Origin: Fistulifera solaris | Taxonomy: Eukaryota | Reading direction: 5' to 3' | Length of the DNA: 64,000 nt | Assembly: GCA_030295235.1 (NCBI GenBank) | Contig: AP026145.1 | Coordinates: forward strand, 248,001 to 312,000 | Shown: positions 17,031-47,075 of the stretch, in pieces | How the letters are laid out: each line of letters begins with the position of its first letter | Position numbering within the stretch: position 1 is the stretch's first letter | Position numbers and translations under genes: made by a program | Notes under the pieces: generated by a model | Told to the model about the DNA's origin: nothing | Database searches by the model: none | What the model saw: the letters and a program-made list of their open reading frames with translations, nothing else

Positions 17031-17123
17031 GTCCACTTGGTCTAGTGGTATGATTCCTCGTTCGGGATGGGATAGCCCTAACGCTAGTCGAGGAGGTCGC
17101 GAGTTCGATTCTCGCAGTGGACC
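17031..17123 (+). tRNA. trnP-CGG: tRNA-Pro(CGG) with 21-nt intron (17067-17087)
   Basis: Acceptor GTCCACT/AGTGGAC plus C73, A-box TGGTCTAGTGG, anticodon stem CCTCG/CGAGG with loop TT-CGG-G^T, T arm GCGAG-TTCGATT-CTCGC. Intron is at the canonical 37/38 position. Confidence 0.93.
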
Positions 17124-17150
17124 TTTCTTTTCTCTTTTGCTTTTGCAAAA
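17124..17150 (+). terminator. Pol III oligo-T terminator region of tRNA-Pro(CGG)
   Basis: TTTCTTTTCTCTTTTGCTTTTGCAAAA directly follows the tRNA. A near-identical trailer follows the tRNA at 41225. Confidence 0.7.
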
Positions 17151-18310
17151 TCTCGTGGTGGATCTTTCTTTTCCTTCCTTGTCACGATTTTTTCATAAAC
17201 TTCGTCTTAACGGTACCCATTATGATTTTTGCTCCTGTATGAAAACATGATATACGACATTGAAATCTGACACAACCCGGTATTCGACTTGCACCTTTTC
17301 ACGAAGGATTTTTGCCGCATAGCGCAAGCAAGCGCGGCCGACCAAGGATGCGGCCGACGCCCGCATTTGTTGGCCTGCTCAACACGAGTGCCCAAGAAGG
17401 AAGAAGGGATGGATCGTTCAAGCGCAATGCCCGCTCGCTAGCAAAAGGGTTCTAATGGAACTCCTTTTCCCTAATATCGTTGTGCTTTCCCATGAATCGG
17501 CTTTTGTGGATGCGCCGGGTACATTTGCGCATCCGAAATTCGCGACGTCTCCAGGAATGCTGCGTGTCGCGTGCCCGCTTCAATGAACACTGTAAGATTG
17601 CAGGTCTGATAATACAGCATTTCGGCCTTTGAGCTCAAAGTTCACAAACAGCTCCATTTTGGGTGCGAAGAACGACGGAGCACGGCAGTTGAGGGAGCCA
17701 GCTAAAATGACTTCAGCTTCTATCAGACAAGTGGCTTCGTCTTCAACCACGGATAATTGTAAAGAGTCTGATCGGCGTTTGTGAACAAAAATGAGCCAAG
17801 CTCAGCGGGGTTACAGTAAGTTCCAAATACTGTATCGGTAACCGCTTCCGACGAGTGATCTTTACAATATCTTTACAATACAAAGCAAGGAGCTGCATGG
17901 TGCATAGAGGTGACAATCCTTTTGCTCATTTCGGGACACTTCGGTGAACAGTAAATTGACTTTAAATGTCGGTAGCGAGCTTGAATCTTTTTTCGACCCG
18001 ATTTCGCCGTGATTCAAAATGAATAATTAATGGCGCTGGTTGGGCCTCTTTCAGAAGAACAAAGCATGGGCAAACGATGTAATCATGTAATCGCTTAACG
18101 CATGTTCGATCATAATCATCGCCTCGGGTTACGTCGCATTCATAGACATTCCTTCGGCAAAACCAATCGACAACTTACTTGGAGATGCCACTGCACATGT
18201 CGAGGACGGACACATCTTGAATAGCGCAAATGACGGTCTTCGCGAAGTACGAGAGGACTTGGAGCTAGAAAGACGAACTGCATTCTAGTTTCGTTAGCTT
18301 CTACGCGGTT

Positions 18311-21300
18311 TTACTCGGACTTTTTATGGTATTTAGGTGGTACGACATCAACATGATAATTCATACCCTTGTTCGAGGCATGTTCCATGCGCCAGTCGAT
18401 CGCCATCTGCAATGCACCTTGTTCCCCAAAAGTCTTGGTCGAGAACTGGTCCGATATCCCTCGAGAACCGGTGGGGCCATCAGGAGTATACTCAGAAGCC
18501 GTTGCCACCCAATAAGACTCTACATTGAGATCTTTGCTCTTTCGGTAAACGCCCAACACTGACCCATCTTCGCGAGGCTCCTTCTTTTTGTGTTGGGTTT
18601 GGTTGTTGTTTTGAGAAATAACATCTCGTGGAAGGAGATTTCCGGGGCGATTGTTCTCTCTATTCTGATCGGCGTGGTCTACGGTCAAAGTGTCGTCCAA
18701 CTCCTCGCCAATATGCGCCTCCAAAACAAAACGGCAGAAGTTTCGAGTGTGGCTTTTTCTCGTCATCCAAAAAGGTGATACGAACGTGATTTTGCCGTCG
18801 ATGGTACTTATGCGCTTCTGAATAGGAATGTACTTTCCTCGGCGAGTGTCGTAGACATGGGTGCCGTCTTCACTGACAAGAAGAAACTTGAACAAAGGGT
18901 GCTCCCACCAACTGTGTTTTTTGCTGCTGAAGTAGGAGAGGATAATTTCCAGAGTGGACAATGTGAAGAGTTTTCTGTGGATAAGCCCAGCCGGACAGCA
19001 ATGGATGAGTTAGTTCATATCGCCACCTTCAATCAACAACAAAGCGAGATACTGGTTCTTACCGGACGTTTCTATTCAGATTTTCCAATCGGCTATTGTC
19101 GGCAATAGATATCCAAGCTAAGACCACCACTCGATTGTCTTTGACGTTGCCGAATATATGATGGCCGACAATGCCCTCCGGTCGCCTGCCTCTGAAGGTG
19201 ATCAAGACGAGGTGGTGAACGTGAGAAATTCTTCTTTGTTTTATTGCAGAGATTGCTGTATAGGGTCACTCTCAGGTATCCATCGCTAGTTGTTTCGGTG
19301 CTCAAAACCTGAAACTTTCTGGTCAGAACATGATCTTTTTGACGAGAAGGATCTGTGTCGAGTCCTATGACTTCTTCGAATTTGTTATCGAATTTCAACC
19401 CTGAAATTTCTCGCCAACCCAAGTCACAGCTCACGATGAAGCCATTTTCATGGCAGAAGTAAATAGTTGGACAGCGGTAGCGAATCGCTTGATGACCTCC
19501 CTTTTCTCGTGCAATCACCATGGTGATTCGTCCATGCTCATCAGCGGTCATCAGTTTGCTTGCCAGGTTCCAGGTCATCCGGCCTGTTCGGGTAACCGGC
19601 GAAGCCACTTTGGTGCCCCACTAGAAACTCCTCACAATCCATGTTGCACAGAAAGGCATCATCGTTTTCGGTCTTGCCTTATCTTTAGACTTTCGCTTCC
19701 CCTTGCCTTTTCCTTTGGCTTTGCCATTAGATTTCACGCTTGCCTTTGCGTTTGCCTTTTGCGCTCAGCATCTCTGTCGCGACCGTTGAGCGAAAACATT
19801 GGAGGGAATCATTCGTAACTGGTCTGTCAGTAGCCAATAATTGATGATTCCTATGGGGATGGGCTCGCCCGATACAGGTTTGAAAGCCTCTGCTTCCGCC
19901 GGTGTTGCAATTTCAACCTTGAAATCAATCTTCACGGACCCCGAGTAAGGCTCAATGCGTTGGCGTCTGAGGCGTAGATTGTTAAAACAGCAAAACTATG
20001 TAAGTGCACACGCTCTGCAATCGCTCATTATTTAACCAATCAACTTACTCCTTTTGTTGATCGAGCCAAGTCTTGAGCTCAGCTACATCAGCGTGGACTG
20101 TCTGGGAGTCGTAAATTTTGCATTTGTTCAATCTTAAGGTAAGTTTTGCTTCGGCATATCGAAGGGATTCGCTTGGTTCAATGCTCGCACCTTTCACCTC
20201 GGATGACTGCCTCTTCAAATTGGCTTCAGATGCAACGGAGTCGTCATCTTTAGAAGGAACCTCTGGTTCAAAGGGCTTGGCTTTGGTAGTAAACAATTCG
20301 ACTTGAGCAAATGATTCAACAGAAGGGCCTTTGGTGGTTAGAACTTTAGTTTCAGTAGGTGTGGACTTTGGACTGTTCTCGTTGTCTTCAAGAAGCGATT
20401 TGCCATTTTTGCGTTTGGCCATATCGGCCTTCAGATTCTGAAGACCACGCTGCGTCTTCAAAGGGTCCTTGACGAATTCGCGAATTGCTCCGAGTTCGAC
20501 GTTGGACAACGGATGACTGGTCTGATTGTGACACAGTTTCCTTAGAAACAGAAGTGGAATCGGCGGGGCTAGAGTTGGACTTTTTAGTCGTCGCTTTGAC
20601 TGCAGGAGCATCGTTGGAAGCGAAGGTAGAGGCGGAGGGCTTCGCTTTGGACTGTTGAGTCGTTGCTTTGGCTGCAGGAGCATTGTTGGAAGCGAAGATA
20701 GAAGCGACGGGTTTCGCTTTGGACTTTTGAGTCGTCGTCACTTTGACTGCAGGAGGATCGTTGGAAGCGAAAGTAGAGGCGGCGGGTTTCGCATTGGACT
20801 GTTGAGTCGTCGCTTTGGCTGCAGGAGCATCGTTGGAAGCGAAGATAGAAGCGACGGATTTCGCTTTGGACTTTTGAGTCGTCATCACTTTGACTGCAGG
20901 AGGATCGTTGGAAGCGAAGGTAGAAGCGGCGGATTTCGCTTTAGACTTTTGAGTCATCGCTTTGGCTGCAGGAGCATCGACGGAAGCGAAAGTAGAGGCC
21001 ACGGATTTCGCTTTGGACTTTTGAGTCGTCGTCACTTTGACTGCAGGAGGATCGTTGGAAAGCGAAGGTAGAAGCGTGATTTCGCTTTAGACTTTTGAGT
21101 CGTCGCTTTGGCTGCAGGAGCATCGACGGAAGCGAAAGTAGAGGCGACGGATTTCGCTTTGGACTTTTGAGTCGTCGTCACTTTGACTGCAGGAGGATCG
21201 TTGGAAGCGAAGGTAGAAGCTGACGGATTTCGCTTTGGACTTTTGAGTCGTCGCTTTGGCTGCAGGAGCATCGATGGAAGCGAAAGTAGAGGCGGCGGGT

Positions 21301-21443
21301 TTCGCTTTGGACTTTTGAGTCGTCGCTTTGGCTGCAGGAGCATCGTTGGAAGCGAAGATAGAGGCGGGTTTGGATTCGCCACCCGAGTCGCGGTATTCGT
21401 TGGAAACAGCTTTCCCGTCCGAGTTAGCGGGAGAAGCGTTCAT
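18311..21443 (-). CDS. Spliced gene: repetitive N-terminus + two HNH endonuclease domains + AP2-like domain (copy 1)
   Basis: Exon 1 (21443-20049) is followed by intron 19967-20048 (GTAAG..CAG), then SGSVKIDFKVEIATPAEA. HNH1 is DGYLRVTLY...HVHHLVLITFRGRRPEGIVGHHIFGNVKDNR..LAW; HNH2 is CRFVLEAHIGEEL...TVDHADQNRENNRPGNL...QNNN; the AP2-like part is GVYRK...YWVAT...FSTKTFGEQGALQMAIDWR. Several frameshifts. Confidence 0.8.
20575..21370 (-). repeat. Coding minisatellite, 72-75 bp (24-25 aa) unit, about 11 copies, in exon 1 of HNH gene copy 1
   Basis: Repeated TTQKSKAKSVASTFASNDAPAAKA / ...SNDPPAVKV units. Confidence 0.9.
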
Positions 21444-22956
21444 GACAGCGAGGAGAGAAAGTTGCGAAACGAGAAAGCGAGTTATGTTTCACAGCTAGTT
21501 GTCTGGAATGATATCAATCGGGTGAGAAGTCGAACATCCAAGGAATGATTTCTCAGCGGGTTCAAAGATGACGGACGTTCGGCTCGCAGTCTCGTCAAAG
21601 CTCAAACAGAAGTTACTTTGATGGAAATAAACATGATAAACAAGCAATCTTACCAGAATATAATGATCTTGATTATTGTTTGCAATAGGACGACACTCGT
21701 TCTTGTTGATCTAAACGAATTTTATGAGCGGAAGACGTCGAGAAAAGCTTGAAAAACGTTTCGGTTTCTAGTGACCTGCAGTAGAAATTCTACGTGGTTT
21801 TCGATTTTCCAACCATAAACCAGTTTGTCTTGGCGAGCCCGGCGCGCTGAGATGCATTGATGAAACCGTCGACGCGTCGGTTTGAGGTAGAGCGCTTTTC
21901 GCAGTATTGGCACTCGCGTCTGACCGAAACTCTTTCCCTTGATGGTGGGAGTTTTTGCCACTGCGCCGCCATCATCCATCGTGCACCTGGTTATTGGTAA
22001 TTGATAGCATTATATTGACAGCAATGGCTGATAAGCCGATACCAAAGTAACAAGCGATAAAATGTAAGAGTTTTCTGGAATCGTCGAGCGTCGTGTCGAG
22101 CCAGTATCATCATACCCCCTGTTCAAGCATAGTGGTGGGCGCCGTTTAATGCGAGCTGATTTTTTTGTGTGTTGTGCCGTCCTACGTTTCGTGCATAGCA
22201 ATGCTGTTTCAGAAATAGCCGAACAGTGGTATTTCCACCTGACTGAGTGTTACGGTCTCACAGCGCTACTTGCACACATTGAGCTGGAAAGATGACGGCG
22301 TCGATTTTTCTTTTGACTTGTCTCGTCCGACGGCGTCGGCCTGCTGCCGAGCCACGACAACAACACAAGGAGCGAAGTTAATACAAAGTAGTTGGCGGTT
22401 AGAGAATGAACAAATCTGCATATAAAAGACGACATGATACCCTTTATATTAGCCTCTTGAGCGGCTCCATTTGACTGAAACAGCGTTTATACAAGCTGCA
22501 TTGTTCCTTGACCCAGGGTTTTTCGCTAATCTGAGATTTCCGCCACTTTAAGGGCTTAAACTCAAGAACTAGGACTCTTTTAATGCCAAGTATATCGGCG
22601 AAGCTCTCCTGGATATAGCCTTCGGTTGGTAACGAGAAAATGATAGGCTCATCTTGGTAGAGAATGGATTTTGTAGCTGTTGACGACGAAAAGAGGGAGA
22701 GAATTGCCCCTCCCCAAACATGCTTTGCCGCCAAAAACCACTTGCCAACTACACGTTTATGGTGAATGCTTCGCTTTTCTTGCTATCCTTTCATGACTTT
22801 GATTGTTATGAAATAGACAAAACATCTCTCTTTCGCAGCTTGCGATCTGTTGAAATCAGGGCTTAATTGATTACCGCCAATCCGCCGTTACAATCAAATT
22901 CTCGAATAAAGACCTTCAGTTGAAGTTGCCGTGATTTGGAAGAAAATTCGTGTGCC

Positions 22957-23424: not shown

Positions 23425-25096
23425 TCAGTTCTCCATTGACGAACGCAATCGTTTAGGCGAGTTTTCCGATATATTGCAATGAAGCGAGACAGGCAGCTCG
23501 TGTTCCTCCAAAGCATAAAAATACTCAAGATTCATATCTTGAATGAACTCGCACAACACATCCATGTGCTGTGATAAAAGCACTTGGTTGCGCTTGTATT
23601 TTTCCAACGCCCTCTGTATCAACAATGTAGCTACCAACTTAGGTCGCGAACGATACAGACTCACGCAACAGAGTCCGTGAATCAATGTAACACTTGTTCA
23701 ACAGGTACAGCCTATCGATACTTGACCCGTCTGTGCACTTGTTGCCAGATCGATCTAGCACCGTGATGTACACGCTATGAGACAACAACAGCCTCAACCA
23801 CGAATAGTCTGGATCGTTCGGGGGTATTGCTCAACAACCAGTGTACGAAGTCCCGGGTGCTCCTCAACTGCTTCAAAGATTTGCTGCAAGTGGGGGCCAA
23901 ATCGAACGGCCAGTACCAACCAGTCAAATCAAGATGCACCAAACTTGGATTGGCCTTTATCGTGTCGATCAGTACTCTTGTGATCGCTTCTTCTTGTTCA
24001 GGGACAACATCCTGCATGATCGAGAATGAGATATTCAATCTTGTAAAGTGGCCCAACTCAGCCAATCGACGTAAAAAAGATATTAAACGCCTTTCCCAAG
24101 CGTTGTCGGAGTCCTCGTCGTCACCTTGTGCATCGGAAACAGACATCAATGTCGAGATCTTGGCGCCACAATGTTCAGTGAAGCTAGATCCGTTGCCTTG
24201 TAAACGCCGTTTGCTTCAAACCCGCATTGCGAGAGCCTTTGTCTTTGCCTCAAGCGGAAGAAGGGCATCTTGACCGTCCACATAAGAAATCTCAAGCCTC
24301 TCAAAGTATGTATCAAGATTACAGAGACGTTTGAAATTTTCTGAATTTAAAGGAATATATTCTTGGTCATACTCAAGGCATAATGAGCCAAAACGAGGAC
24401 TGTCGTTTCTCGAGCTTCAACGAATGCAGTTCCTCCATCTTGGAATGTAAAATAGATCCAGTTCGGAGAAGAGACGGCAAGTTTCAAGTCTAAAGCATAC
24501 GGTCGCGTCGCTAGAACGACGGACTGTTCAGCATCCCATTCTCCTGCTGCAAACTTGATCTGTTGTTTCGAACTTGCATCGAGTAAGAAAGCGATCTCCT
24601 CTGGATCGAGGTGTTCAGCGAAGTCAAAGTCGCCATCATTCGCCTCCAAGTGTTCCCAATCGATTTCGAAACGTACTTTGCTTGCTTGACAATGTTGATA
24701 CGGCGCATAAAAGTCCAAGAATGTTTCAACTGCGTCTAATGCTTCTCCGTAGATGCTGCATATTGCGCCGCTCAATTGATACTTTCCGACATGAATGGTA
24801 AAGGAGATTTTCCAGCTAAAGTATCTATGATTCTCAGGTTTGCATAACAAAATAAAGAGTCCATCTTTCAGCCAAATAGCAATGTCACGGTATGATTCCC
24901 ATTCGAAGTCTTCAAGGCTTTTCGGTTCCCGTGTCATCTTGTAAATTGGTAAGGAGGCTTCGCGGCGCCAGTGACCTCGGCATTGCTTTTGCTGAAACGT
25001 CAATTGCTCCTCTGGGATGAGGACTAAGAAAGATTCGATCATCTCTTGCTGTTTCATGTTTAAAACGAGTCGAAAAGAAGCACACAACTGCTTCAT
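23425..25096 (-). CDS. Expanded lineage-specific RNI/LRR-like family protein, copy A (fragmented)
   Basis: LIPEEQLT...LPIYKMTREPKSLEDFEW, W..EQSVVLATRPY, FQDGGTAFVEA, IKANPSLVHLDL and LLSQHMDVLCEFIQ are shared with copies B-D. Function unknown. Confidence 0.7.
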
Positions 25097-25380: not shown

Positions 25381-26975
25381 CTAGTACTCCAATGACGAAC
25401 GCCAATCTTTTATGAGCTCTTTGCGACGAATTCGCGACGGCCAGGAAGGGAACTCAGATTCCTCAGGAGCAGAAACCAAAGCAACATTATCCTCGTGATT
25501 TATAGCTTGAATGAACTCGCACAACACATCCATCTGCTGTGACAAAAGCACTTGGTTGCGCTTGTATTTCTCCGAAGCACCCTGTATCAACAATTTAGCA
25601 ACCAAACTAGGTCGCTAGCGATGCAGACTCTCGCAACAGAGTGCTTGAATCAATGTAACACTTGTTCAACAGGTACAGCCTATCGATACTCGACCCGTCT
25701 GTGCATTTGTTGCCAGATCGATCTAGCACCGTGATGTACAGGTTGCGAGACAGCAACAGCCTCAACCACGAATAGTTTGGATCGTTCGGGGGTATTTCTC
25801 AACAACAAGTGTACGCAGTCCCGGGTGTTCCGCAGCTGCTTCAAAAATATGCTGCACTTGGGGGTTCCAATCGAACGACCATTTAGAATTACTCAAATCA
25901 AGATGCACCAGCCTGGGATTGGCTTTGATTGCACTGACAAGTGCATTTGTGACAGCTTCCACTTTCTCAGACACAAATTGGTGCCAAGAGATGATCGCTA
26001 TGTTCAATTTCTCGAAGTGGCCCAGTTCTGTCACTCGATTCAAAAATGAAATCGAAAAGTCATCCCAGTTGTCGCCATCGTCATCACCGCCAACGTAAAT
26101 TTTCAAACTGAGATCTTTGGGTGGAATATCCAAAGACTTGAAATCATCTGGCTCAATGCTGTTCGAGTCAATACTGTACTCCAAAGCATTGGTATTCGCT
26201 GAGAACGGAAGAAGCACGCATTCCGCCGAAAGTCATCGTGAGAACGTGGGAAGCGCGAGCTTTTCAAAATAACAGTCCAAACGTAACAGTCGTTTCAAGT
26301 TTCGCGACACTAAACGGCATTTCGTATTCTTCACGGTCGATAAGGGAAAGTGAGCCAAATGACGACTGCCGCGTCTCGAGAGCCTCTACGAATGCAGTTC
26401 CAAGGTCACTGAATTCAATACCACTGTGTGCCGCAGCTATCTCACCCAAATCTAATTCAATAGGATACGGTCGTGTCGCCAAAACGACGGAATGTTCTTC
26501 CGACCATTCTCCTATAGAAAATGCAAATCGTCGCGTCGGGCTTGCATCCATGATGCGAGCAAGTTCCTCTGGATCAAACTTCTCAGCAAAGTTCTTGTCC
26601 GGCATGAAGTTGCTCATATCAATTTCAATACGTACATCTCCTTCATCAGAATTGTTAAGAGAAGCGAGGAGTGCCGCCGTCCTGAAAAAGTCGCCTCGTG
26701 AGATTACGCCGCTCAGTAGATATTTGCCCGCGTGAACGGAAAAGGGAACCTTGATGTCAAAAATACGCGTGATGATCCTCTTTGCACATCCAAAGTACTG
26801 AACCATTACATCTGATTATAATGTCATAATAAGATTCTAACTCAAATTCATTTAAGCTTGCCGGCTTCCGCAACAGCTTGTAGATGGGCAAATGCTCGTG
26901 CTTGTACGGTCGACAACATCTTTGATTACGCGTCAATCGCTCCTCTGGAATGTGCTCTAACAAAGGACCCCTCAT
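25381..26975 (-). CDS. Expanded RNI/LRR-like family protein, copy B (fragmented)
   Basis: MRGPLLEHIPEERLT...LPIYKLLRKP, WSEEHSVVLATRPY, LGTAFVEALETRQSSFGSL, IKANPRLVHLDLS. Confidence 0.72.
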
Positions 26976-35380: not shown

Positions 35381-36875
35381 TACAGACATTCTGTTTGATT
35401 GGTCCTTAAATTCTGGACCGGGTGTTTTCTTCTCGCAGAGGTTCTGTGCTGGTTCGAGAAAAAATATACACGGTGTAATGGATAATACCAGATTAGGTGA
35501 TGCTGTATTACTTCGAAAAATGAGACGCTGGTTTCGACAAACAGCTTTTGTGTGATTTCCAGATTATCTGGAAAAAGCATTCCGTCGTACAGAAATTCTG
35601 TTTCTTTGGTCCTTAAATTCTGGACCAGGTGTTTTCTTCTCGCAGAGGTTCTGTGCTGGTTCGAGAAAATATATACACGGTGTAATGGATAATACCAGAT
35701 TAGGTGATGCTGTATTACTTCGAAAAATGGGACGCTGGTTTCGACAAGCAGCTTTTGTGGGATTTCCAGATTATCTGGAAAAAGCATTCCGTCGTACAGA
35801 AATTCTGTTTCTTTGGTCCTTAAATTCTGGACCGAGTGTTTTCTTCTCGCAGAGGTTCTGTGCTGGTTCGAGAAAAAATATACACGGTGTAATGGATAAT
35901 ACCAGATTAGGTGATGCTGTATTACTTCGAAAAATGAGACGCTGGTTTCGACAAACAGCTTTTGTGTGATTTCCAGATTATCTGGAAAAAGCATTCCGTC
36001 GTACAGAAATTCTGTTTCTTTGGTCCTTAAATTCTGGACCAGGTGTTTTCTTCTCGCAGAGGTTCTGTGCTGGTTCGAGAAAATATATACACGGTGTAAT
36101 GGATAATACCAGATTAGGTGATGCTATATTACTTCGAAAAATGGGACGCTGGTTTCGACAAGCAGCTTTTGTGGGATTTCCAGATTATCTGGAAAAGCAT
36201 TCCGTCGTACAGAAATTCTGTTTCTTTGGTCCTTAATTTCTGGACCGAGTGTTTTCTTCTCGCAGAGGCTCTGTGCTGGTTCCAGAAACTCTGGATAGGG
36301 TGTAATGGATCATACCAGATTGGGTGACGCTCTATTACTTCCAAAAATGAGACGATGGTTTCGACAAATAGCAAAAAGCTTTTGTGTGATTTCCAGATTA
36401 TCTGGAAACAACGACCCCGTCCTACAGAAATTCTGTTTGAATGGTCCAGAAATTCTGGACCGGGTGTTTTCTTCTCGCAGAGGCTCTGTGCTGGTTCCAG
36501 ATATTCTATACAAGGTGTAATGGATCATACCAGATTGTGTGACGCTCTATTACTTCCAAAAATGAGACGATGGTTTCGACAAACAGCATTTGTGTGATTT
36601 CCCGATTATCTGGAAACAGCGATCCCGCCATACAGAAATTCTGTTTGAATGGTCCAGAAATTCTGGACCAGGTGTTTTCTTCTCGCAGAGGCTATGTGCT
36701 GGTTCCAGAAACTCTGAATAGGGTGTAATCAGGTGTAATGGATCATACCTGGTACTGGTACGGATTGTGGGATGCTGTACGCTGTACCTGGTACAACGTC
36801 TTCGAAAAAATGAGACGGTGGTTTCGACAAACAGCTTTTGTGTGATTTCCAGATTATCTGGAAGCAGCGATCCCA
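35381..36875. repeat. Tandem satellite, about 207-bp unit, 7 copies, palindrome-rich
   Basis: Units start at 35381, 35588, 35795, 36002, 36208, 36423 and 36631 (TACAGAAATTCTGT anchor; TACAGACATTCTGT in unit 1). Confidence 0.95.
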
Positions 36876-37065: not shown

Positions 37066-38603
37066 ATGGCTTGTTGGTTCAGAGATCTTCCTGCCAGCGA
37101 GATGAACGACGACAGGTCGACGCTCATGACGCAACTTCGCGCGACTAAACGGAGTTCGAAGATGCAGTTCTACCACGCAGTCCACCATCCTTGTAACATG
37201 AAATGTCTAATAGAGGATTTAGAAGGGCATCAGCTTGTGTGGCTTGATGCCGAAAGCTTCATCGTAACCAAAAAACTACCAAAATCTGTTCCTTACTCCT
37301 CCAAGTTTCGGAAAGGGACTGCATGCATTGAATTCACATACATGACGATCTACATCTACGGGACATCAAGTCGAGTTGTAGCCCTTGTTACAGAACGCTT
37401 TCTTCTTCTGAAAGATCCTTGCTACTCTATTTGTATTGGAGCTAATTATAATGGTACGGGCGATAAGCTGACTCCCACTACTTTTCTGGACACGCGGTTC
37501 CTTCAAGAACTCTTCGAAGTCAATCCGCATCGCCTGCTCGTCCTAGGACGTGGATGTTATCTTTCGAAACAGCAATCAGTTGCACTCGCATCGCACCCAA
37601 AGCCCTTGAAACTGGAAGTTGATTGCATGTTTGAAGATTACGGGCGCGCGTTTGTTGAAACGCTTTCGCAACGAACCACCGACTTTGGCGTACTTTCGCT
37701 TTGGACGCGCAGCTGTTTTGATAAGAGGTACACTGAAAAGTCATCCTATGGGTTCCATTCCGAGATCATGAGCGCCCTTTCCCATGTTTCGCTGCGAACG
37801 ACGAGCCAGATTTGGAAAGGGTCGCAGTGCATTATACCTCTGTCTTCTTCGGCGCTGCGACTTGAATACACAATCCCGAATTCGAGTGAAATCGCGGAAG
37901 TCGAAATACTTACAGTGGCTCCCAAGAAGTCAAATTAGTGTTCGAGTCGTCGATACCCTCCCCCTTTTCATACTCATTTCTTTGAGAAGAGTGGAAATTT
38001 ACAAGAACTGGGGATCATTTATAATTTCTACCACGCACCTTCTGCGGAACAACAGCAAGAACTTTTACAGGCGATTGCAACGAGTCAGAATTTAAAACGG
38101 CTTGAGCTCGGTTGTCTTTCCATTTTGAATGAGTTTTGGTGCGAGCTAATAGCGGTTCTTCAACAGCACAAAAGTCTTCGGATAGTAGTTTTCCGGGTGC
38201 AAACGAAACCGAAGTTGAATCAGGTGAATACGCTGGCTACTCTCATGCAAAGAAACAGTTTCTTAGATGTTTCGTTCGATTACATAATGATGAATTTTGC
38301 CGATAAACTTGAGGTGGAAGCCAAAATTGGGCCGATACGTCTTCAAAATCGTATCAGCGCTCTGACGCGCGATTCCAACTATGATCGATCATCTCTATTC
38401 GGTGCGGCGCTGATGCATTGGGGAAATGGTTACTTTGGTGCGATGGGTTTTTGTTGAGCCCGAATGTTGATGTTCTCTGTTCTTTACTTGGTCAGCCCCC
38501 ATGTGATGCAGCCAGAAGTGAAACGCGCGCGGAAACTAGTCACCAAATAGATCTTTCTCCCCGCTTGAAGAAACAAAAGACGGATTTACAGGAAGAAGTC
38601 TGA
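37066..38603 (+). CDS. Divergent RNI/LRR-like family protein, copy D (fragmented)
   Basis: LFEVNPHRLL...LSKQQSVALASHP...FEDYGRAFVETLSQRTTDFGVLSL, HKSLRIVVF and LLSPNVDVLCSL correspond to motifs in copies A-C. Confidence 0.62.
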
Positions 38604-39146
38604 CACAATCGCGTGTATTTCAAACAAATCTGCTGAAGTTTGTGATGTCCTAAGTAAACCTCGCATCAAGCCTAATACTTATTGCTTTATCCACGTAATT
38701 TCATCGGTCAACGGTAATGAATCATAATTTCTCTTTTGATCAAGATAATCCTTTCTGCTGCAAGTAGGGGCCAAGGTTATAACGGACGCTTTTCTTTGTT
38801 TTCTGTTGCTTTTTATCCTTTCGCATATCCATCGGTTTCCTGTCGCTCCGTTTAAAGCGCGCCGATTAGTTGCAAATTTATTGTATCCAGCAGCGAGGAT
38901 CAAATGACAACCAAGCATTCATTCAATATAAGAAAATGAGTCTAAACGGACGTTCTTGATTAGGTCTAGACTATTCGGGTTTCTATAACATTTTAGGTCT
39001 AACCTTTTCCACGACTGCATTTCAGCAATTCGTGTTAAATACAGAGCGGTACCCCTTCTCCTCCGCCGCAAAAAAGAATAAACGCATCGCAATCGCTAAA
39101 GGTCGTCGATTATGCTTATTGTATTTCTTTGACACTTGCATTCAAT

Positions 39147-40208
39147 ATGATGAAATCACATTATTGTACAAATCTTGTGCTACTGTTGCTGATTCCATGT
39201 CCACCAATTTGGGGATTCGTCATTACGCGGAACGGATTGCCAGCGAAAAGTCTCCGTAAAATGGTCTGCCAGTCCCCCAATTTGGTGTTTCCACATCGAC
39301 GAAGGAAGGATTTACTCAAACGAAATGCTCTGATACCGCTTACAGTCCCTGAAACGCAAAATTTGCTGTCAACCGGTCCACCTACGGGTGCACAATACTC
39401 CGTATACATTGGCCGAACGCCTCGCGAACGGTTTGGCCGACTGATCGAGTCGTCGATTGTCGGGTTCTTGGGTGTTTTCTTCAGCTATTTTCTCTCTTTT
39501 GTCATTGGTGGATTTTTCGCAACATTGTTAGGGTGTATTTTCTTCTTCTGGGGTATTTTATCACCAGAGTTTCAAGCATATCAAAGGAACTGGGAATTTT
39601 TAGGAGGTCGACCACTGGTTGATATGGAAGATACTACCGCGAAGAAAGATCCAGACAAAGCTGGTCTGTACAGTGCTCTCTTTGTTGGTCATCTTGCGGA
39701 TTTAGCTGTTGTGGAAGATGCTATTTCGGATGTGGAGTACGATTTAGACGATTTTCGCGATTACACAATGGACGGCGACGAGCTGGAAAAGTTGACCGGT
39801 CGACCGTATTTGCTTCGCGTTTTAGCCCGCGATCGAACAGGACGCGAACTTCAAATACACACGAGGATGAGCGAAGAGTATGTCGACGGTGCATTGGAAA
39901 CAGGGTTGCCCGTGACAGCAATCTTGCTCAGTACACAGAGAAATTTTTCACGCTTAGCCGGCATCACCGACCTATACGTTCCGGATGCCAACTTGTGGCT
40001 AGGAGACTACCCATATCTTGACAGGGAACACATGGAAGCCATGCTAGCGGAAGACGATGATATTTGGGATGCGCTGCAAGCCGAAGCTATCGATTACGAC
40101 TTGATGGAGGATGTTTATCAAGATAGCAAAGGGGACAACGATGGAAATGATGACTTCAATTCCATAACTGACAATCGCATTCCTCTCCGACGGCGAAGAA
40201 AAAGATAG
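39147..40208 (+). CDS. Conserved hypothetical membrane protein, probably plastid-targeted
   Basis: Intact ORF with a signal peptide ending IWG-F followed by a basic transit-like segment, and two hydrophobic helices. LIPLT...PTGAQY recalls a cyanobacterial/plant membrane family (from memory, unverified). Confidence 0.7.
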   Translation: MMKSHYCTNLVLLLLIPCPPIWGFVITRNGLPAKSLRKMVCQSPNLVFPHRRRKDLLKRNALIPLTVPETQNLLSTGPPTGAQYSVYIGRTPRERFGRLIESSIVGFLGVFFSYFLSFVIGGFFATLLGCIFFFWGILSPEFQAYQRNWEFLGGRPLVDMEDTTAKKDPDKAGLYSALFVGHLADLAVVEDAISDVEYDLDDFRDYTMDGDELEKLTGRPYLLRVLARDRTGRELQIHTRMSEEYVDGALETGLPVTAILLSTQRNFSRLAGITDLYVPDANLWLGDYPYLDREHMEAMLAEDDDIWDALQAEAIDYDLMEDVYQDSKGDNDGNDDFNSITDNRIPLRRRRKR

Positions 40209-41086
40209 TTCCCAATGGTTGTTTGCGGCTTGCGGCTTCCTGATGTGAATTTTATAATGTTTTGCTATTGGATATTAATGTCGTGTGGCATTCGTGCAAA
40301 CTGGTTAACACTTCATTTGCTCGAAGAATTAGCTGTGGTTGGCAGGCGATGCTAATGCTAAGTCATTATTAATTATCAGGTAATCAATGTCGTGTAACTT
40401 GTGAAGAAGAAGAAAAATGAGCTCTGCAGATTCTCTAGAGAGATGATAGAGATACGCTCGTAACGTGAGTTAGCTTTGACGTCATAGCGGCACTGCATTG
40501 GTACTTCTCATTTGTCATCTATTGGTTGATCATGTTTGAACTATAGGCTTCTAATACCGGGTCAAGGTCAATCGGCACTCGGCTGTAAGCGCGCGTCCTT
40601 AGTAGCAGTACTGTACCATGTCCTGGACATGTTGCGTCCAGTGCTTGATGAAATTTTGACAAACTAAAAACGCGGCGCAATATTAGATAAAATAATGTAG
40701 CATGTAATCTCATAGAATTTTGAATTTGACAGGTAAGTTGAAGCACGGCAATGTCATGTTTCTAAGGTACGCATGGCGCCGTTTGTGATCCGCTCTGACA
40801 ATTGCGTCCGTTGCTTACGCATTATTGAAACAATTTAGAGCGGAATCTCTGCTTACAAAGCAAGCAAGCTGCATGACATTACCAGGTAAATTTGGCGACG
40901 AATCTGAACAAACAGAGCCCTGAATTCATTAACAAAGTTCATTGCTCGCTTAGTACTCGTCACTCGTCATTGGTAGGAGAAACATAGTTTCTCAAATCTC
41001 AAGCCCAAATATAAAAATGAAAAGCGACAAAGACTATAAAAACAAAAAGAGAAGATAGATAGCATTAGGCAGACGATGGCGTCAAA

Positions 41087-41122
41087 GTCGGCATGGTCTA
41101 GAGGCATGATACTCGCTTTGGG
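41087..41122 (+). pseudogene. Orphan 5' half of a tRNA-Pro(TGG)
   Basis: GTCGGCA-TG-GTCTAGAGGCATGAT-A-CTCGC-TT-TGG-G, ending at position 37. No matching GCGAG or T arm follows. Confidence 0.8.
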
Positions 41123-41224
41123 ACTCAACCCCCAACCAATGAAAGTGGCAAAGACTGACTCAACTAACTTGGCAATTCTAGGTTGCAATTCAATAACCCT
41201 AGCTACTGTTGCACGTGTGATGGA

Positions 41225-41313
41225 GTCGGCATGGTCTAGTGGTATGATCCCTGCTTTGGGGCTCGGGAATGAGCGGTTGCAGGGGGTCCCGAGTTCAAAC
41301 CTCGGTGTCGACC
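41225..41313 (+). tRNA. trnP-TGG: tRNA-Pro(TGG) with 17-nt intron (41261-41277)
   Basis: Acceptor GTCGGCA/TGTCGAC plus C73, anticodon stem CCTGC/GCAGG with loop TT-TGG-G^T, T arm CCGAG-TTCAAAC-CTCGG, followed by an oligo-T trailer. Confidence 0.93.
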
Positions 41314-41590
41314 TTCTTTTGTCTTTTGCTTTTGCAAAAGGTTGTCCTCGGGCGTTTTTCCATGCGTTGGATGTTGGATCCAAAAAATGGCAAGGTTGCA
41401 ATCATACGTTTGGCTGTCACCCGTCTCCATAATTTTTGCCTATGTGTTCAGTACCGTTTCTGAGATAAGGACACTGAGGCTACTAAAACTGCAATACCAA
41501 TATTTCATCGTCTACTTATTATTTGAGATTAAGCACATTACTGTATGCATTAATGTTGTGCGGAGCTGTTCTTCGTTCTTCGCGCAAGTG
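41292..41590 (+). repeat. Left diverged direct repeat (tRNA 3' end + trailer)
   Basis: Shares TGTCGACCTTCTTTT, GTTGGATCCAAAAAATGGC, GTCACCCGTCT, TTTCTGA..AGGACAC and GGAGCTGTTCTTCG with 46794-47075. Confidence 0.85.
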
Positions 41591-42339
41591 CTTGCTTTCT
41601 TGCTTCTTGCTTGCTCCTAGGCTCGCATAAGGTTAGGGTTACTGGTAGCGCCGTTTCCATTTTTCACGCTTTTGACGCACGCAACAACACAAACCACAAC
41701 CAGCCATTCCATGCGTTTGCAACCATTCGAGTTCATAAAAAATAGTTCGTAGTTTTGTTGTCGACTGAGATGAGAAAACGAGACAACCCTTTCGCCGTCG
41801 GTCTTTCGGCCGTGATCAGGCAATTTAACAAAAATTGGACAACAGATCGAGGAATTTTGGAAGGAATTCTCCTTCCATCGAATGCCATTAAGTCGAAACT
41901 GTGCCTTGCCGTTCATTTGCGGTGACGAATGGCGATGTGAACAGAAAGACCCGGGTGTTTTTGAGATGAAAAGCTCTAAAAATCCGTCGTTGTTTAGTGA
42001 AAACCATTCTGGCAAAGTGATCTTGGCGCCCGTCTTCATGATTTCTCCGAAAGACCTGCGATGAACTTCCGTTTGGAATTCGTTTTGGAATTGGGAGCCA
42101 CACTCCGACGACACAATCGCGACGTTTTTACGACAATAGCTGAACGGTGTTCAAGTACCCTTCAATTCTTCTTACCAGGTACCTGGTAAACGAAAAGCAC
42201 GCAACATCGCTTTTCTTTTCAAGATACGAACAGCTCCAATTAAACTTGAACGGGTATTCAATTGACAACCGAATCGTGATCCTACTAATTGATATGATTT
42301 TTCTCAATTAAGTTTTTTTTGACGAGCGGCGATTTCACA

Positions 42340-42690
42340 ATAGATGTTGAATGAGAGACATTTGCCACTTGTTGGGACGTTCGATGAAGATTGAGTCGAT
42401 TTTAGATGTCGGTATTGGGTCTGCCTCTTTTTCCATTGTCGTCACTCAACGATGGCAAAAGCTGCTGCGATTGCTTAACATCTATTCGATCACGAGAAAT
42501 TTGTTCGGTCGACATCCGACAGCATGATTTGTAATCTTGAAAGAGACGAACTACATGACTAGAGCTTCCTTAGATACTACAGCGATTGTGCCAGTCGATC
42601 GCCATCTGCAAATGCACTCTGTTATCCATAGTCCGAAATTCCTCGCGTATCGGCAGGCCCACCAGCTGTATCCTCATTTTGTTTACGGAT
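42340..42690 (-). pseudogene. Relic third copy of the HNH-AP2 gene 3' end and its downstream region
   Basis: CCAGTCGATCGCCATCTGCAA matches 18392 and GTCCGAAATTCCTCG matches 43450. Translation TAGGPADTRGISD parallels TPDGPTGSRGISD, and 42360-42420 parallels 42970-43030. Confidence 0.65.
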
Positions 42691-43311
42691 AGGTCTACGC
42701 AGCTCACAAAATTGATAAATTTTTAGGTGACCGTGGAAGAACTGTTTGAAGAGGATCGAAGACAAGATTTGGGCCACATTCGACATCTCTATACAATGCG
42801 ACGATTTTTCATGAACGAAAAGCAAGCAACACTGTGCTGCGCTACAAGTTACGAATTGCTCCGTTCAACCACTACCCGAACAAACGTTTGAAACAGATCA
42901 CGCATTGCATTGTCATTTGCCGTTGGTTCTCAATCATGTACTTGACGAGCGATCTTCACAAGCGATATCTAATTTGCCGATTGGGGACGATCTGCTGAAG
43001 ACTGAGTCGAATCTAGCCGTTGGTAGCCTACCGTTTGCTTGTCCAAACCAAATTTCGTCACGATCGACTACGACAAGCTTTTTGACGCTTATACAACAGA
43101 CCAATCGGAGCTCTTTTCAATTCACTTGGTCGATATGATATTTCCTGCATGTTCGATAAAAATCGCCATGGCGTGCGTCGCATCCACTTGTTTTCGACAA
43201 GATCATTCAAAGATGGACGGTCGTGGAACCAACGTTCGAAACCAGAATACGAGACTCAGATCTAGGAAGAAACGAACTGCATTACTAGTTTCGTTAGCTT
43301 CTCACGCAAGT

Positions 43312-46085
43312 CTACTCGGTCTTCTTTGGGTATGTAGGAGGAACGACATCAACGTGATAGTTCATACCCTTGTTCGAGGAATGTAGCATACGCCAATCGT
43401 TCGCCATCTGCAATGCACCTTTCTCCCCGTATGTCTTGGTCGAGAACTTGTCCGAAATTCCTCGAAGCGGTAGGGCCAACAGGAGTATACTCGCTGGCTG
43501 TTGCCTTCCAATAAGAATCTACGCTAAGATCCTTATTATCGCGGAAGACGTAAGAGTGAACCATCTTCGCGCCGGTCCCTTCTGACGGTGTTGGGTTTGG
43601 TTGTTGTTTTGAAAGATTACACCTCGGTCAAGGAGGTTTCCGACGGCATTGTCCTCTCGATTTTGATTGGCGTGGTCGACGGTCAGCTTCTCGCTCAATT
43701 CCTTGCCAATATGCGCTTCCAAGACAAAGCGGCAGAAGTTTCGGGTTCGAGTCACTTTCTGAAGTCCGTGAAAGTGATGCGGAACGTGATCTTGCCGTCG
43801 ATGGTACTGATGCGCTTCTGGATAGGAATGTATCTTTTTCGGCCTAGGTGGTAGACATGGGTGCCGTCTCCACTGACAAGAATATCCTTGAAGAAAGGGT
43901 GCTCCCACCAGTCGTGCTCTCCGCTCCTCCAATAGGTTGAAATGATCTCTAAAGTGGACAGAGTCCAAAATTTTCTCGCGAGCAAGAAAAAGTGGCGACA
44001 AGGGTGAGTGTGCGATCGTCGCCTCATTCTTGTCTAACACGGTGAAACTTACTTGCGGTCCCTGAAAAGATTTGCCAGCATACTATTTTCAGCAAGCAAG
44101 ATCCAAGCTAAGTTCACCAAGCGATTGTCTTGTACGTCGCTGTTTCCGTGATGACTGACACATCCCTCTGGTCGTCTGCCTCTGAAGGTGATCAGCACAA
44201 GGTGGTGGACGTGAAATTTCTTTTTGGTATGGTTGCAGAGGTCGCTGTAAAGATCCACTCTCAGGTACCCGTCGGAATCCATTTGAGTTTTCAACACTCT
44301 ATAGAATCTGGTCAGAATATGGCGACCCCCGCCCTAGTTTGAGGTCTCTTCCGACGACTTCCTCATACTTTGAATTAAAATTTCCCATGACCTTCGGGCT
44401 GTATTCTCGCCAACTTTGTCTGCGACCGATGATGAAGCCATTCTCGTGGCAAAAGTAAACCAACGGGTAAAAGGGGAAAGTCTTTAGTGTCCCATCCTTC
44501 ATCTGAATTCTTGCAACCACCGCACAAAGTTGCCCATTTTCATCGTAGGACGTTTCTTCGCTTTCCAGCCTCTATCCCCTGCTCCTCCGGGTATGGGAAA
44601 TAGCCCGTGTAGGGGCCAATGCGAAAGTCCTCATAATCCATGTCAAGAAGAAATGGATCGTCCTCGTCTTTGGTCTTGACTCCCCCTTCGGTTTGGTGGT
44701 TACTTTGACCTTCGGGTTCAGCATCTTTGGCGCTCAGCATCTCGGTTCGCCCATTGAGGTCAAAGACATTGTACGGAATCGCTCGCAACTGATCTGTCAA
44801 TAGCCAATCATTGATGATCCCAATTGGAATTGGCTTGTTGGGCTTCTTGGGGTCGTTGTTTATATAGTCTTTTATGTTGAATGCCTAGGCTTCCGCTGGT
44901 GTCGCGATCTCAACTTTGAAATCAAACCTCACGGATCCCGAAGAAGGTTCAGCGCGTCTGTGTTATAAGAGCAGAAAAACTTGTGAGTACCGTACGTCCA
45001 GTGAACGCTGGCAAAGCAGAAGATAATGTGACCTACCTGCCCCTTCGCCTTCGGCGATCGATCAACATCGCAAGCTCCGCTACGTTACGAGGACCTTCTG
45101 GGAGTCGTTGAGTTTCCATATCTTGAATCTTTTGGCGCATTCTCTCGACAGCGTTTTCCAGCAATTCACACCGTGGAACTCTTGCCCCGCCATCAACTGG
45201 AGGTTGCTGCGCGGCGTCAGCTTCGGGAACAACGGAGTCATCGTCGGCAATGGAGTCGTCATCGTTGACACCGAGAACTTCAATGTCGTTGGTGGATGCG
45301 TTGGGATCATCCGCTTGCATCGGGGCGAAGTTCGACTTCCACGGAATCGTCGTCGACTGTAATGACTTGCACTGTAGAGGCAATGGGAGCGTTGGTGTCG
45401 AGAAGCGACTGGCCACGTTCACGCTTTGCCATGTCGTCCTTCAACTTCGCGAAGGGCACGCGTTAGCGTCTTGTTTGGTTTCGAACGAGGGCGGCGGGTT
45501 TGGACGTGGTGATCTGCGATCCAGCAAGCAGAGCATCTTCAACATCGGTATCGGTGTCCGACTCAAAGACGTCACGGAGAAAAGTCTTTGCCCAAGCCAG
45601 AAACACAATGGCAGGCGTCAGCGGCTGCTACAGCGGGTTTGGGGGTGCGGGTAGCATGTCGTGTCTTCTTAGAGCCTGAGCGAGCGACAGCGGCGGGTTT
45701 GGGGGTACGGGTCTTCCACTTAGGTCCAGCAAGCAGAGCACCTTCGACATCAGTATCGCTGTCGGACTCAAGGAGGAAGAGAGGATCTTGTTTGCCCGAA
45801 CCGGAAACCCAAGGAACGGCGGCGGGTTTGGAATCGAAATCGTCGTCCTCGCCGTCATCGTAAAGAGTAGCCGCGAGGGCCGCAAATCGGTTCGAGACAG
45901 CGACAGGAGCGGGCTTCTTGTCTTGAGACGGATCAACCTTCTTGTCTTCGACAGATCGGTCTTGTTCCGCTTCGTCGAAGCCTCGTTCAGTATCCGAAGG
46001 GTTCTTTGAGACGCGACGTTTCTTGTTGTTGACGATGGTATAGCCAGAGTCGGTGGTAGACGAAGTCGGTGGAAGAAGAGTCCAT
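43312..46085 (-). CDS. Spliced gene: low-complexity N-terminus + two HNH domains + AP2-like domain (copy 2, possibly inactivated)
   Basis: The ATG at 46085 has a 5' region homologous to that of copy 1, and intron 44958-45036 has the same position and phase. HNH1 is DGYLRVDLY...VHHLVLITFRGRRPEGCVSHHGNSDVQDNRLVNLAW; HNH2 is TVDHANQNREDNAVGNL; the end is VVPPTYPKKTE*. In-frame TAG at 44885-44887, plus frameshifts. Confidence 0.78.
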
Positions 46086-46793
46086 GGTAGTTTCGAGAGA
46101 AAGATTGCGAGATTGCAAAGAGAAAGTGAAAGTGATGTTTCACCAAAAATTGTGTTTTTGTGTGCTTGGTGCGGTGTTTCATTTTACAGAGCTTTGCTTT
46201 TGTTGATCATAGCCGTCAGCACAAACGGCGGGACCAGACTTGTCTCGTGAATGAAGATCATTGCCCTTTGTCTATGCCCCTCAATAAAGTATCGAGATAG
46301 ATTCAATGACAATTCCATTGGATCTTTGTAGAAATAGGACTTCTTTGAGTGCTGCTGCGAGAAGAATTGTACTCCCATCTTTTTTGGTGTTCATCGAAGT
46401 TATTTTTGAAGCATCGAATTTAAGTTTAGCACAAGACTCTGTTCTTATCGAAGGACAAGTAATGCTTCGATGGAATTATACTAAAAGAACCTCGAATGGT
46501 TGAAGCTGCATGAAGCTTACATTTATCATTAGTTGTTGCTCTTTTCACGAACGGCTTTCAGATAGTACGTGGGGAAATTGTTTGAAAAGAATGAATAATT
46601 TGCTTTTGTGTGAAGCACTAGCATACGACTCGTGACCAGCTTTTTGTTCTATAGAGTAACGTGTACACTGGCCGTCGTCCTTAACCTCAACCAAGACCTA
46701 CAAGTAACTGTGGAAAGGAACAACGAGTATACGAGTACCGGATCAAATATCTGCGAAACGTAAACTCAGATCGCAGTGATATTCAACTAAGCT

Positions 46794-47075
46794 AGTTCGA
46801 TTCCCGCTGTCGACCTTCTTTTCTCTTTTGAAGTCTTCGGGCGTCTTCCCAAGCGTTGGATCCAAAAAATGGCGAATGGCGAAGTTGCGTCCATCCGTTT
46901 GACCGTCACCCGTCTAAATGAATTTAGTCTAAGTATTCAGTACAAGTACCATTTCTGAAAAGAGGACACACATTGTACTAAACTTGCCATACCAAATTTC
47001 ACTACATACTTGTTATACTATATGAAACAATGTAGTGTAGGGATTAATCTAGTATGGAGCTGTTCTTCGCGCAGG
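46794..47075 (+). repeat. Right diverged direct repeat beginning with an orphan tRNA-Pro 3' end (46795-46815)
   Basis: GTTCGATTCCCGC-TGTCGAC-C-TTCTTTTCTCTTTTG gives the T loop, T stem 3' strand, acceptor 3' strand and terminator. No A-box or anticodon arm upstream. Confidence 0.85.

Follow-up and report, generated by a model that had tools for sequence, protein, structure and literature searches.

Proline tRNA genes paired with tandem HNH endonuclease genes in Fistulifera solaris: a candidate nuclear homing system

We analyzed a 64,000-nucleotide (nt) stretch of Fistulifera solaris, a diatom described as allodiploid with the subgenomes H and L (PMC5935921). The stretch, referred to hereafter as the window, comprises positions 248,001-312,000 of the forward strand of contig AP026145.1 (assembly GCA_030295235.1), and all coordinates are given within it. 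The chromosome is assigned to subgenome H by the public name of one of its genes, the locus-1 gene introduced below. Two loci about 24 kb apart, on one chromosome and in the same orientation, each contain a proline tRNA (tRNA-Pro) gene lying 1.2-2 kb from the 3' end of a convergent minus-strand gene that encodes a pair of HNH_3 domains and an AP2-like domain. The original prediction had proposed this pairing, and ARAGORN, Pfam, and the alignment of the two loci confirmed it. These genes belong to a small, patchy nuclear family of phage-type endonuclease genes, two old paralogs of which stand tail-to-tail with tRNA-Pro genes.

For the tRNA search, we used ARAGORN, including its intron mode, and the Rfam tRNA model at gathering filters and in E-value mode. 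Within the 64 kb of the window, ARAGORN found two tRNA genes, both of them tRNA-Pro. The first, tRNA1 (17031..17123, plus strand), is a tRNA-Pro(CGG) with a score of 49 bits against the Rfam tRNA model. It probably holds an intron of about 21 nt after position 37, as judged from a manual reading of a CCTCG/CGAGG stem, whereas ARAGORN draws a long extra arm instead. The second, tRNA2 (41225..41313, plus strand), was labeled 'tRNA-???' in the first ARAGORN run and was classified in intron mode as tRNA-Pro(UGG), its 17-nt intron lying at the canonical site. The Rfam tRNA model did not report tRNA2 at E up to 5, finding tRNA1 alone, and Rfam at gathering thresholds gave no matches in the window. 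A T-rich trailer follows tRNA1 (17124..17150, plus strand) and is common to tRNA2, where 25 of 26 positions at 41314-41339 are identical (E 5e-7). The published list, which its authors call incomplete, has 37 predicted tRNA genes in H and 39 in L, most anticodons being single copy; Pro(CGG) is listed once per subgenome, the L copy being assigned to a different scaffold, and Pro(UGG) is absent from the list (PMC5935921, Table S3). As each subgenome has so few tRNA genes, two of them within 24 kb, both for proline and both beside a member of the same gene family, are unusual here.

The locus-1 gene is publicly modeled as a protein of 764 amino acids (aa), GAX20792.1 (FisN_7Hu104), which is called P0056 below. 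According to this model, its upstream coding region on the minus strand (19622..21443, with the ATG at 21443) contains a conserved block, a basic run, and tandem repeats of 24 aa, the exon structure of this part being provisional. The repeats form about 11 tandem copies of a 72-bp unit, rich in Ala, Ser, and Lys, at 20539-21367 in the N-terminal coding region. The following exon (19063..19621, minus strand) encodes a conserved N-terminal domain and the first HNH module (HNH1), and it is represented by the 186-aa protein P0066, found in NCBI and Logan. A spliceosomal GT..AG intron of 88 nt in phase 2 (18975..19062, minus strand), read from the sequence, leads to the last exon (18311..18974, minus strand), which encodes an I-HmuI-like N-terminal sheet, the second HNH module (HNH2), the AP2-like domain, and the stop codon, scoring 29.9 bits for HNH_3 and 19.2 bits for AP2. 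The proteins P0001 and P0056 match this last exon at 95%, and the spliced locus-1 product aligns without gaps to the paralog P0061.

In the window, the reading frame of the locus-1 gene is broken: P0066 has a single open frame across the N-terminal domain and HNH1, where the window needs three frames. Additionally, mutually compensating indel errors lie at about 18760-18790, and RITFLDDEKKR in P0001 and P0056 corresponds to a stretch of the window in which the frame is shifted twice. P0001 (195 aa) is open over HNH2-AP2. A pseudogene at locus 1 was ruled out because the frame breaks are missing from P0066, P0001, and P0056. The frameshifts, for which the original prediction had called for a corrected protein, are by the evidence of these three intact sequences errors of this assembly, and the HNH1 and HNH2-AP2 exons are intact.

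Seven open reading frames (ORFs) were scanned with Pfam at cutoffs of 24.8 bits for HNH_3 and 33.3 bits for AP2. HNH_3 matched three of the seven (29.9, 22.7, and 33.9 bits) and AP2 matched one, at 19.2 bits, which is below the cutoff. HNH2, with 29.9 bits in the window ORF and 30.1 bits in P0001, and HNH1 of locus 2, with 33.9 bits, are all above the HNH_3 cutoff. HNH1 of locus 1, taken from P0066, scores 23.6 bits, just below 24.8, and it matches HNH families of PHROG down to 4e-13; both modules have matches among these families. The residues H96, N104, and N108, numbered as in the window ORF, show no variation or at least 90% conservation among 23 members, and H434, N442, and N446 are likewise conserved among 28. 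These His and Asn columns align to the DH...NN...N pattern of I-HmuI. The two modules are not detectably alike by BLASTP, which rules out a recent internal duplication as the source of HNH1 and HNH2.

The predicted model of the full-length family member P0023 is confident in its C-terminal half only (pLDDT mostly 80-98), and the half with HNH1 is of low confidence. Residues 357-461 of this model superimpose on I-HmuI (1u3e) with Z 10.7 and a root-mean-square deviation (rmsd) of 2.8 over 96 residues, whereas the whole-model Foldseek search gave weak rows only, I-HmuI being the first (E 0.054). Residues 466-536 resemble AP2 domains of Toxoplasma, an apicomplexan, with Z 7.3-7.5 and rmsd 2.4-3.3 over about 60 residues. 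The AP2 profile search gave E 0.02-0.04, and Pfam AP2 scored 13-28 bits in six of the eight family proteins scanned, all below the 33.3 cutoff. We name the domain AP2-like because a Z under 8 can reflect a common arrangement. By sequence and predicted model, the protein is a tandem of I-HmuI-type HNH_3 modules with an AP2-like tail and a long eukaryote-style N-terminus.

The family is rare. A phmmer search of 1.84 billion protein representatives (E <= 1e-3) returned 55 matches, 14 of them at 1e-10 or below and three at 1e-30 or below, and the nearest large protein clusters are phage AP2/HNH endonucleases. Twenty clusters were looked up by exact sequence, and three carry F. solaris names, on chromosomes 7H, 1L, and 6H. 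In addition to the locus-1 gene, these are FisN_1Lu663 (GAX19873.1, 235 aa, 59% identical) and FisN_6Hu206 (GAX20255.1, 1013 aa). An unnamed 80-aa NCBI fragment, P0007, is closely like the C-terminus of FisN_1Lu663, and F. solaris has at least three further family members. One match, the Bartonella YadA-like repeat protein P0019, was spurious, arising through 11 short repeated stretches, and was dropped. No match was obtained by tblastn against 50,697 phage records (E 1e-3). No relative was found in the scans of metagenome contigs, with either an alignment or a single protein as the query, or in the scans of viral contigs. A query with residues 440-764 of P0056 over lengths of 420-1337 returned nothing, the 195-aa representative of its own cluster being outside this range. 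Word-based searches of 5.8 billion protein clusters yielded no intact L ortholog of the locus-1 gene.

The two cassettes were then aligned with each other. The longest block, 18256-19285 against 43253-44274, is 74.6% identical over 1041 nt and spans the 3' untranslated region and the HNH exons. Weaker blocks lie upstream (19756-19960 against 44725-44957, and 20076-20135 against 45073-45131). The tRNA genes with their trailers (17038-17150 against 41232-41339) are 75.7% identical, about 70 nt of the ATG region match (21422-21492 against 46064-46143), and the spacers between tRNA and endonuclease gene show a weak likeness (z = 10). The GT..AG intron has an identical place and phase in both genes (19062-18975 and 44052-43975). 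Thus the common trailer, ATG-upstream region, intron position, and 3' region that had been claimed beforehand, together with the dissimilar flanks, were all borne out by the alignments. The homology is limited to the stretch between the tRNA and a point some 50 nt upstream of the ATG; outside the cassettes the sequences are unlike. A simple segmental duplication including the host flanks, which the original prediction had named as evidence against a mobile cassette, does not describe the two loci, as the likeness stops near the tRNA and the ATG. Between the loci, dN/dS is 0.20-0.39 with dS of 0.56-1.4; such dN/dS values indicate that both copies were under purifying selection for most of a long divergence.

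The locus-2 gene (43312..46085, minus strand; intron 43975-44052) is probably a pseudogene. Its reading frame is interrupted by a TAG at 44887-44885, the counterpart of a GAG in locus 1, and its repeats differ from those of locus 1, being shorter (45482-45831). To compare haplotypes, Logan contigs from four runs (X1-X4) were set against positions 38000-50000 of the window at a likeness of at least 80%. Among the difference rows listed against the run contigs, none contradicts the TAG. No product of the locus-2 ORF was found by word-based search among the 5.8 billion protein clusters, although contigs of X1 and X2 carry the locus. The probable pseudogene status is based on the TAG and the missing ORF product, the frame breaks of the window being untrustworthy there.

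The errors of the window have a pattern of their own. Compared with the contigs, the window has a roughly tenfold higher density of small indels in the cassettes than in host DNA. Over 40157-47637, the 7479-nt contig of X1 shows 38 gaps, and the 3977-nt contig of X2 shows 28; in host DNA (38000-39900 and 47165-49140), single indels were found in 1405, 1879, and 1975 nt. Every located frame break between the window and the proteins lies in or beside a CpG, several of them in CGCG contexts, and the observed/expected CpG ratio of the cassettes is 0.9-1.4, which is not depleted. Indels at CpG are the pattern left by long-read base-calling at methylated cytosines. Because the indel errors cluster at CpG in this manner, the cassettes may be CpG-methylated, as silenced mobile DNA is. 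A nanopore-only assembly of F. solaris has been described (10.1101/2021.11.10.468027). Two apparent single-base errors of the window were also located in host DNA: an extra letter at 48735 in the lipase ORF (against X1, X2, and X4) and a missing T behind 38447 (against X1 and X2). The many small indel errors concentrated in the cassettes could raise the suspicion that the whole arrangement is an assembly artefact. This is scarcely credible, as independent contigs of X1 and X2 reproduce the long-range structure and the locus-1 exons exist as proteins from both NCBI and Logan.

At locus 2, the cassette stands within the remains of another tRNA gene. The 5' half of an older tRNA-Pro(UGG), with the acceptor strand, the D arm, the anticodon stem-loop, and the first three intron bases, lies at 41087..41131 (plus strand). 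It is 85% identical to 41224-41264 and is separated from the whole tRNA2 by 95 bp of other sequence. From the T arm of tRNA2 onward, a first direct repeat (DR1, 41292..41597, plus strand) includes the T arm, the trailer, and about 280 bp, and it matches a second copy at 46794-47084 (DR2). BLAST gives 68% identity over 297 nt with blocks of 70-86%, the overall identity being 68-77% and z = 50 against shuffles. Part of the spacer that follows (41598..43311) is duplicated in tandem within it, and a piece of the gene's 3' end is found there out of place (42587-42623); the spacer ORF 41617-42114 matched no Pfam family. Beyond the endonuclease gene, its upstream region within the insert (46086..46793) resembles locus 1 in the first 60 nt or so only. 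DR2 begins with a tRNA-Pro 3' fragment (46794..46816, plus strand), comprising the T loop and the acceptor 3' strand, and continues with the trailer and further repeat sequence to 47084. Since the 5' half and the 3' fragment have mutually complementary acceptor strands, the two can be read as one older gene that has been split by about 5.66 kb. The 3' fragment is a mosaic: its T loop is that of tRNA1, whereas its acceptor strand is that of tRNA2. The link between the cassette and tRNA-Pro genes is twofold, with a position beside one such gene and inside another.

The boundaries of the insert, at about 41131 and 46793, coincide with none of the 25 longest of 35 inverted pairs. No recombinase, integrase, or reverse transcriptase was found by Pfam among the scanned ORFs of the cassettes and the insert. 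A class 3 lipase gene, a host gene outside the cassette, follows at 47116..48831 (plus strand; Lipase_3, 1.1e-18), and the other scanned neighbors belong to host families (GDPD, lipase) or to no family. We also ruled out that the upstream flanks of the three tRNA pieces are alike (z -0.3 to 1.8) and that the trailer homology extends downstream of tRNA1 into DR-like DNA (z -1.3 and -0.6).

The empty site that the original prediction had proposed to look for is present at locus 2. Contigs bearing the cassette are collinear with the window, X1 with 7479 nt over 40157-47637 and X2 with pieces of 3467 and 3977 nt, and each of these runs has a second contig of equal depth without the cassette. In X1, this contig (1267 nt, depth 16.1) joins 40201 to 41085, 41126 to 46882, 46943 to 47086, and 47113 to 47200; from there it runs on into the lipase gene at 87% identity (55 differences over 438 nt). 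It aligns to 41085-41126 of the tRNA 5' half, the letters between the joined pieces being unread. In X2, the cassette-free contig (depth 11.1) joins 41260 to 46875, so that 5755 and 5614 nt are skipped at locus 2 in the two runs. The host genes are represented by two contigs and the cassette by one, and in X1 the depth of the host genes is about twice that of the cassette. The second haplotype, about 87% identical, is probably the homeologous chromosome, which in the simplest reading of these contigs would have the upstream gene, one tRNA-Pro, and the lipase, with no HNH cassette. A further X2 contig (depth 10.9, with 34 letters on its short side) joins 41465 to 46312, skipping 4846 nt; this join might reflect a further arrangement of the locus, come from a different organism, or be a short match by chance. 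X2 is a wetland metagenome run with both haplotypes at a similar depth of about 10-11, and its long collinear pieces differ from the window by 0.4-0.8% (7 in 1879 nt and 33 in 3977 nt). Pieces so nearly identical, in both haplotypes, indicate a near-identical allodiploid organism in that sample.

The presence of the cassette in one haplotype and its absence from the other would follow either from an insertion in H or from a deletion in L by way of the direct repeats, an insertion in H being our tentative reading. The deletion would fit an ancient pair of resident genes encoding a domesticated host protein, one of which was lost in L by recombination between DR1 and DR2, the tRNA fragments being leftovers of tandem duplication. 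Deletions classically arise between direct repeats of this length (300 bp), and the identity of DR1 and DR2 (68-77%) is close to that between H and L there, so that the repeat may be older than the species split. The dS between the gene copies (0.56-1.4) likewise equals or exceeds the raw H-L divergence in the lipase gene (12.6%), and the intron, the low-complexity repeats, and the basic run are eukaryotic features of the gene. However, such a deletion predicts the 5' half followed by a whole tRNA, whereas in the X1 contig, as far as its joined pieces show, the DR2-like DNA is preceded by one tRNA piece of 42 nt. The pieces of the second haplotype at 46882-46943 and 47086-47113, moreover, fit DR2 and not DR1. 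With no intact L ortholog of the locus-1 gene in the protein searches, the family would also have become hemizygous more than once. We consider loss in L a serious but less likely alternative.

The split older tRNA and the cassette-free sister chromosome suggest a selfish gene that spreads by cutting tRNA genes. In the reading that we favor, with a probability of roughly 0.4, the two genes would be free-standing homing-endonuclease genes, active now or formerly, whose target lies in the DNA of tRNA-Pro genes. Landing within a tRNA-Pro gene of about 75 nt needs a cause: either the site was cleaved as a target, or the cassette's own tRNA provided homology to it. Homing is favored because the protein is, by its sequence, a conserved and catalytically intact homing nuclease of the phage type, because both junctions at locus 2 lie within the tRNA body, and because the family is rare, multi-copy, and partly decayed, as selfish nucleases are. 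A tRNA-Pro gene that lacks the cassette would be cut by the enzyme at a point between the T stem and the intron of the anticodon loop, with one strand nicked by each HNH module. For repair, a segment of a locus that has the cassette would then be copied or captured into the break; as the tRNA sequence would be the sole homology, the far side would be closed by end joining. The incoming segment would bring its own whole tRNA-Pro to replace the destroyed gene, and the host would survive. Cleavage, target, direction of insertion, and repair route are all part of this proposal and are put forward from the arrangement of the sequences. A fuller version, in which a nuclear homing system acts on low-copy tRNA-Pro genes and the cassette combines a resistant replacement tRNA with an endonuclease gene, perhaps silenced at CpG, appears rather doubtful.

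Several points weigh against homing. HNH1 of locus 1 keeps the His, but by eye D-N and V-L replace the consensus N-N and N-L, its score is under the Pfam cutoff (23.6 versus 24.8 bits), and it has no BLASTP likeness to HNH2. Cleavage and its target site are predictions. The independent events number one or two, given that the tRNA linkage of homologous cassettes may count once. DR1 resembles the recipient's own downstream DNA (68-77%) and nothing at locus 1, which is not expected if the cassette was simply copied from there. Old copies 24 kb apart on one chromosome are also what a local duplication would leave; recombination between DR1 and DR2 could have removed the cassette from the homeolog; and locus 2 is probably dead. 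Domestication as a host protein would agree with the spliceosomal intron, the 24-aa repeats, and the differing extensions of the relatives. Long residence or domestication thus fits the old copies, one of them decayed, with their intron and N-terminal repeats, as well as mobility does. Of the mobile tRNA-Pro cassette envisaged in the original prediction, the empty site and the position inside a split tRNA speak for mobility, whereas the age of the intron-bearing copies is equally compatible with domestication.

A different cause of the landing would be homology alone. A break or replication error at the old tRNA-Pro(UGG) may have been repaired ectopically from another tRNA-Pro locus in a homology-driven segmental duplication, with the HNH-AP2 gene as a passenger. 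The donor would be the locus 24 kb away or a lost third copy, the tRNA genes acting as fragile sites and short dispersed homologies. The placement of both copies on one chromosome, 24 kb apart and in the same orientation, agrees with this account, and so does the further local tandem duplication in the locus-2 spacer. The tRNA 3' ends are mutual mosaics, as gene conversion leaves, and the insert has no terminal inverted repeats and no recombinase in its scanned ORFs. However, a passive passenger leaves unexplained why a catalytically conserved gene of the homing type stands at both tRNA-Pro genes and why the locus-2 junctions are inside the tRNA body and not at its edges, and the long purifying selection implies that the gene mattered at both sites. 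This passenger history is possible, if on balance improbable.

Homing endonuclease genes of the free-standing kind are familiar from phages and organelles; in eukaryotic nuclear chromosomes they are, to our knowledge, rare and poorly documented as mobile. The diatom protein shares with I-HmuI and the NUMOD4-HNH_3-AP2 proteins of phages the catalytic fold, the N-terminal sheet, and the AP2-type C-terminal domain, as far as the predicted model goes. In contrast to the I-HmuI type, it has two HNH modules in one chain, mutually unlike by BLASTP, and its gene is nuclear, has a spliceosomal intron and a long repeat-rich N-terminus, and lies beside a tRNA gene and not in a group I intron. I-HmuI, to which a NUMOD4-HNH_3-AP2 gene of a Symbiodinium polinton-like virus has been likened, is reported to nick DNA (PMC12220804). 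By analogy, the tandem HNH form would make a double-strand cut.

The tRNA gene as a site of mobile DNA also has known parallels. The tRNA region of phage T5 carries HNH enzymes. SegB of phage T4 is reported to lie in the phage tRNA cluster, to cut the DNA of a relative's tRNA region, and to be inherited with the flanking tRNA genes (PMC2330249), and a study of 2026 ties it to the segmental amplification of a locus (PMC13096335). The diatom cassettes resemble SegB in that an endonuclease gene is lodged among tRNA genes. They differ in that SegB is a GIY-YIG enzyme acting in phage co-infection, whereas the diatom family is HNH, in a eukaryotic nucleus, with cleavage only predicted. Tetrahymena has germline-limited HNH-AP2 genes, and HNH-AP2 proteins are cited as the source of the plant AP2/ERF factors. 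These ciliate genes, too, reside in a eukaryotic nucleus, encode HNH together with AP2, and have ties to mobile DNA, but they belong to germline-limited elements, and we know of no tRNA linkage and no tandem HNH among them.

Integrase islands occupy the 3' ends of prokaryotic tRNA genes, and the retroelements Ty3 and the Dictyostelium TRE target tRNA genes, inserting beside and not within them. Locus 2 resembles such islands in that one end is marked by a complete tRNA and the opposite end by a displaced 3' piece, but the scanned diatom ORFs contain no integrase, the repeat is about 300 bp at 68-77%, and the insertion is inside the tRNA body. With the tRNA-targeting retroelements, the cassettes have the tRNA link in common; they differ in their position within the tRNA and in the lack of a reverse transcriptase among the scanned ORFs. 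Inverted repeats at the insert ends, by which a cut-and-paste transposon would be recognized, are missing at locus 2 among the 25 longest of 35 pairs.

The end structure of locus 2, with its whole tRNA and displaced 3' fragment as after an integrase-type insertion, also raises the alternative that the cassettes are remnants of a larger viral or polinton-like element, which carried tRNA and HNH-AP2 genes and was integrated at tRNA-Pro by a recombinase lost since. The nearest large clusters are viral, and the Symbiodinium polinton-like virus, an alga-associated element, has the matching NUMOD4-HNH_3-AP2 domain set (PMC12220804). However, that virus is an element with a recombinase, whereas the scanned ORFs in and beside the diatom cassettes include no integrase, capsid, or other viral gene. 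The diverged 300-bp repeat is not a short exact att core, and neither the 50,697 phage records (tblastn, E 1e-3) nor the viral-contig scans gave a match. Such an origin is very unlikely. For polinton-like viruses of cryptophytes, no tRNA genes were reported close to the integration sites (PMC12220804). A literature search at the level of listings found no description of this family or of its tRNA linkage, in line with the original prediction, whose author likewise knew of none.

If the fuller version of the homing reading is true, these cassettes would be the first nuclear homing element of tRNA genes and a natural drive in the 'cleave and rescue' style in diatoms. Cutting of tRNA-Pro genes would show a route of survival in the nucleus, by which an essential, conserved, and short target is combined with a spare copy brought along. 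It would also provide a natural enzyme with a defined nuclear target in a diatom used in biotechnology, for which genome editing is available (PMC13276009), and a living intermediate for the idea that AP2 transcription factors arose from HNH-AP2 endonucleases. If the gene is a passenger instead, the locus would be a clean example of tRNA genes as breakpoints between allodiploid subgenomes.

Some minor observations were made elsewhere in the window and in the runs. No RNA record was listed for locus 1, and the X4 contigs cover only the lipase gene and a short piece at 49788-49942, with no cassette; neither observation bears on expression. A weak C/D-box snoRNA match (RF00317) at 40395-40472, with 22.7 bits against a gathering threshold of 39 and E 1.6, is probably due to chance. 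Other repeats of the window include a 500-bp segment present at 23508-24007 and 25476-25976, 84% identical and about 2 kb apart, a tandem array at 35381-36874 with a period of about 207 bp, and a tandem repeat at 14217-14982.

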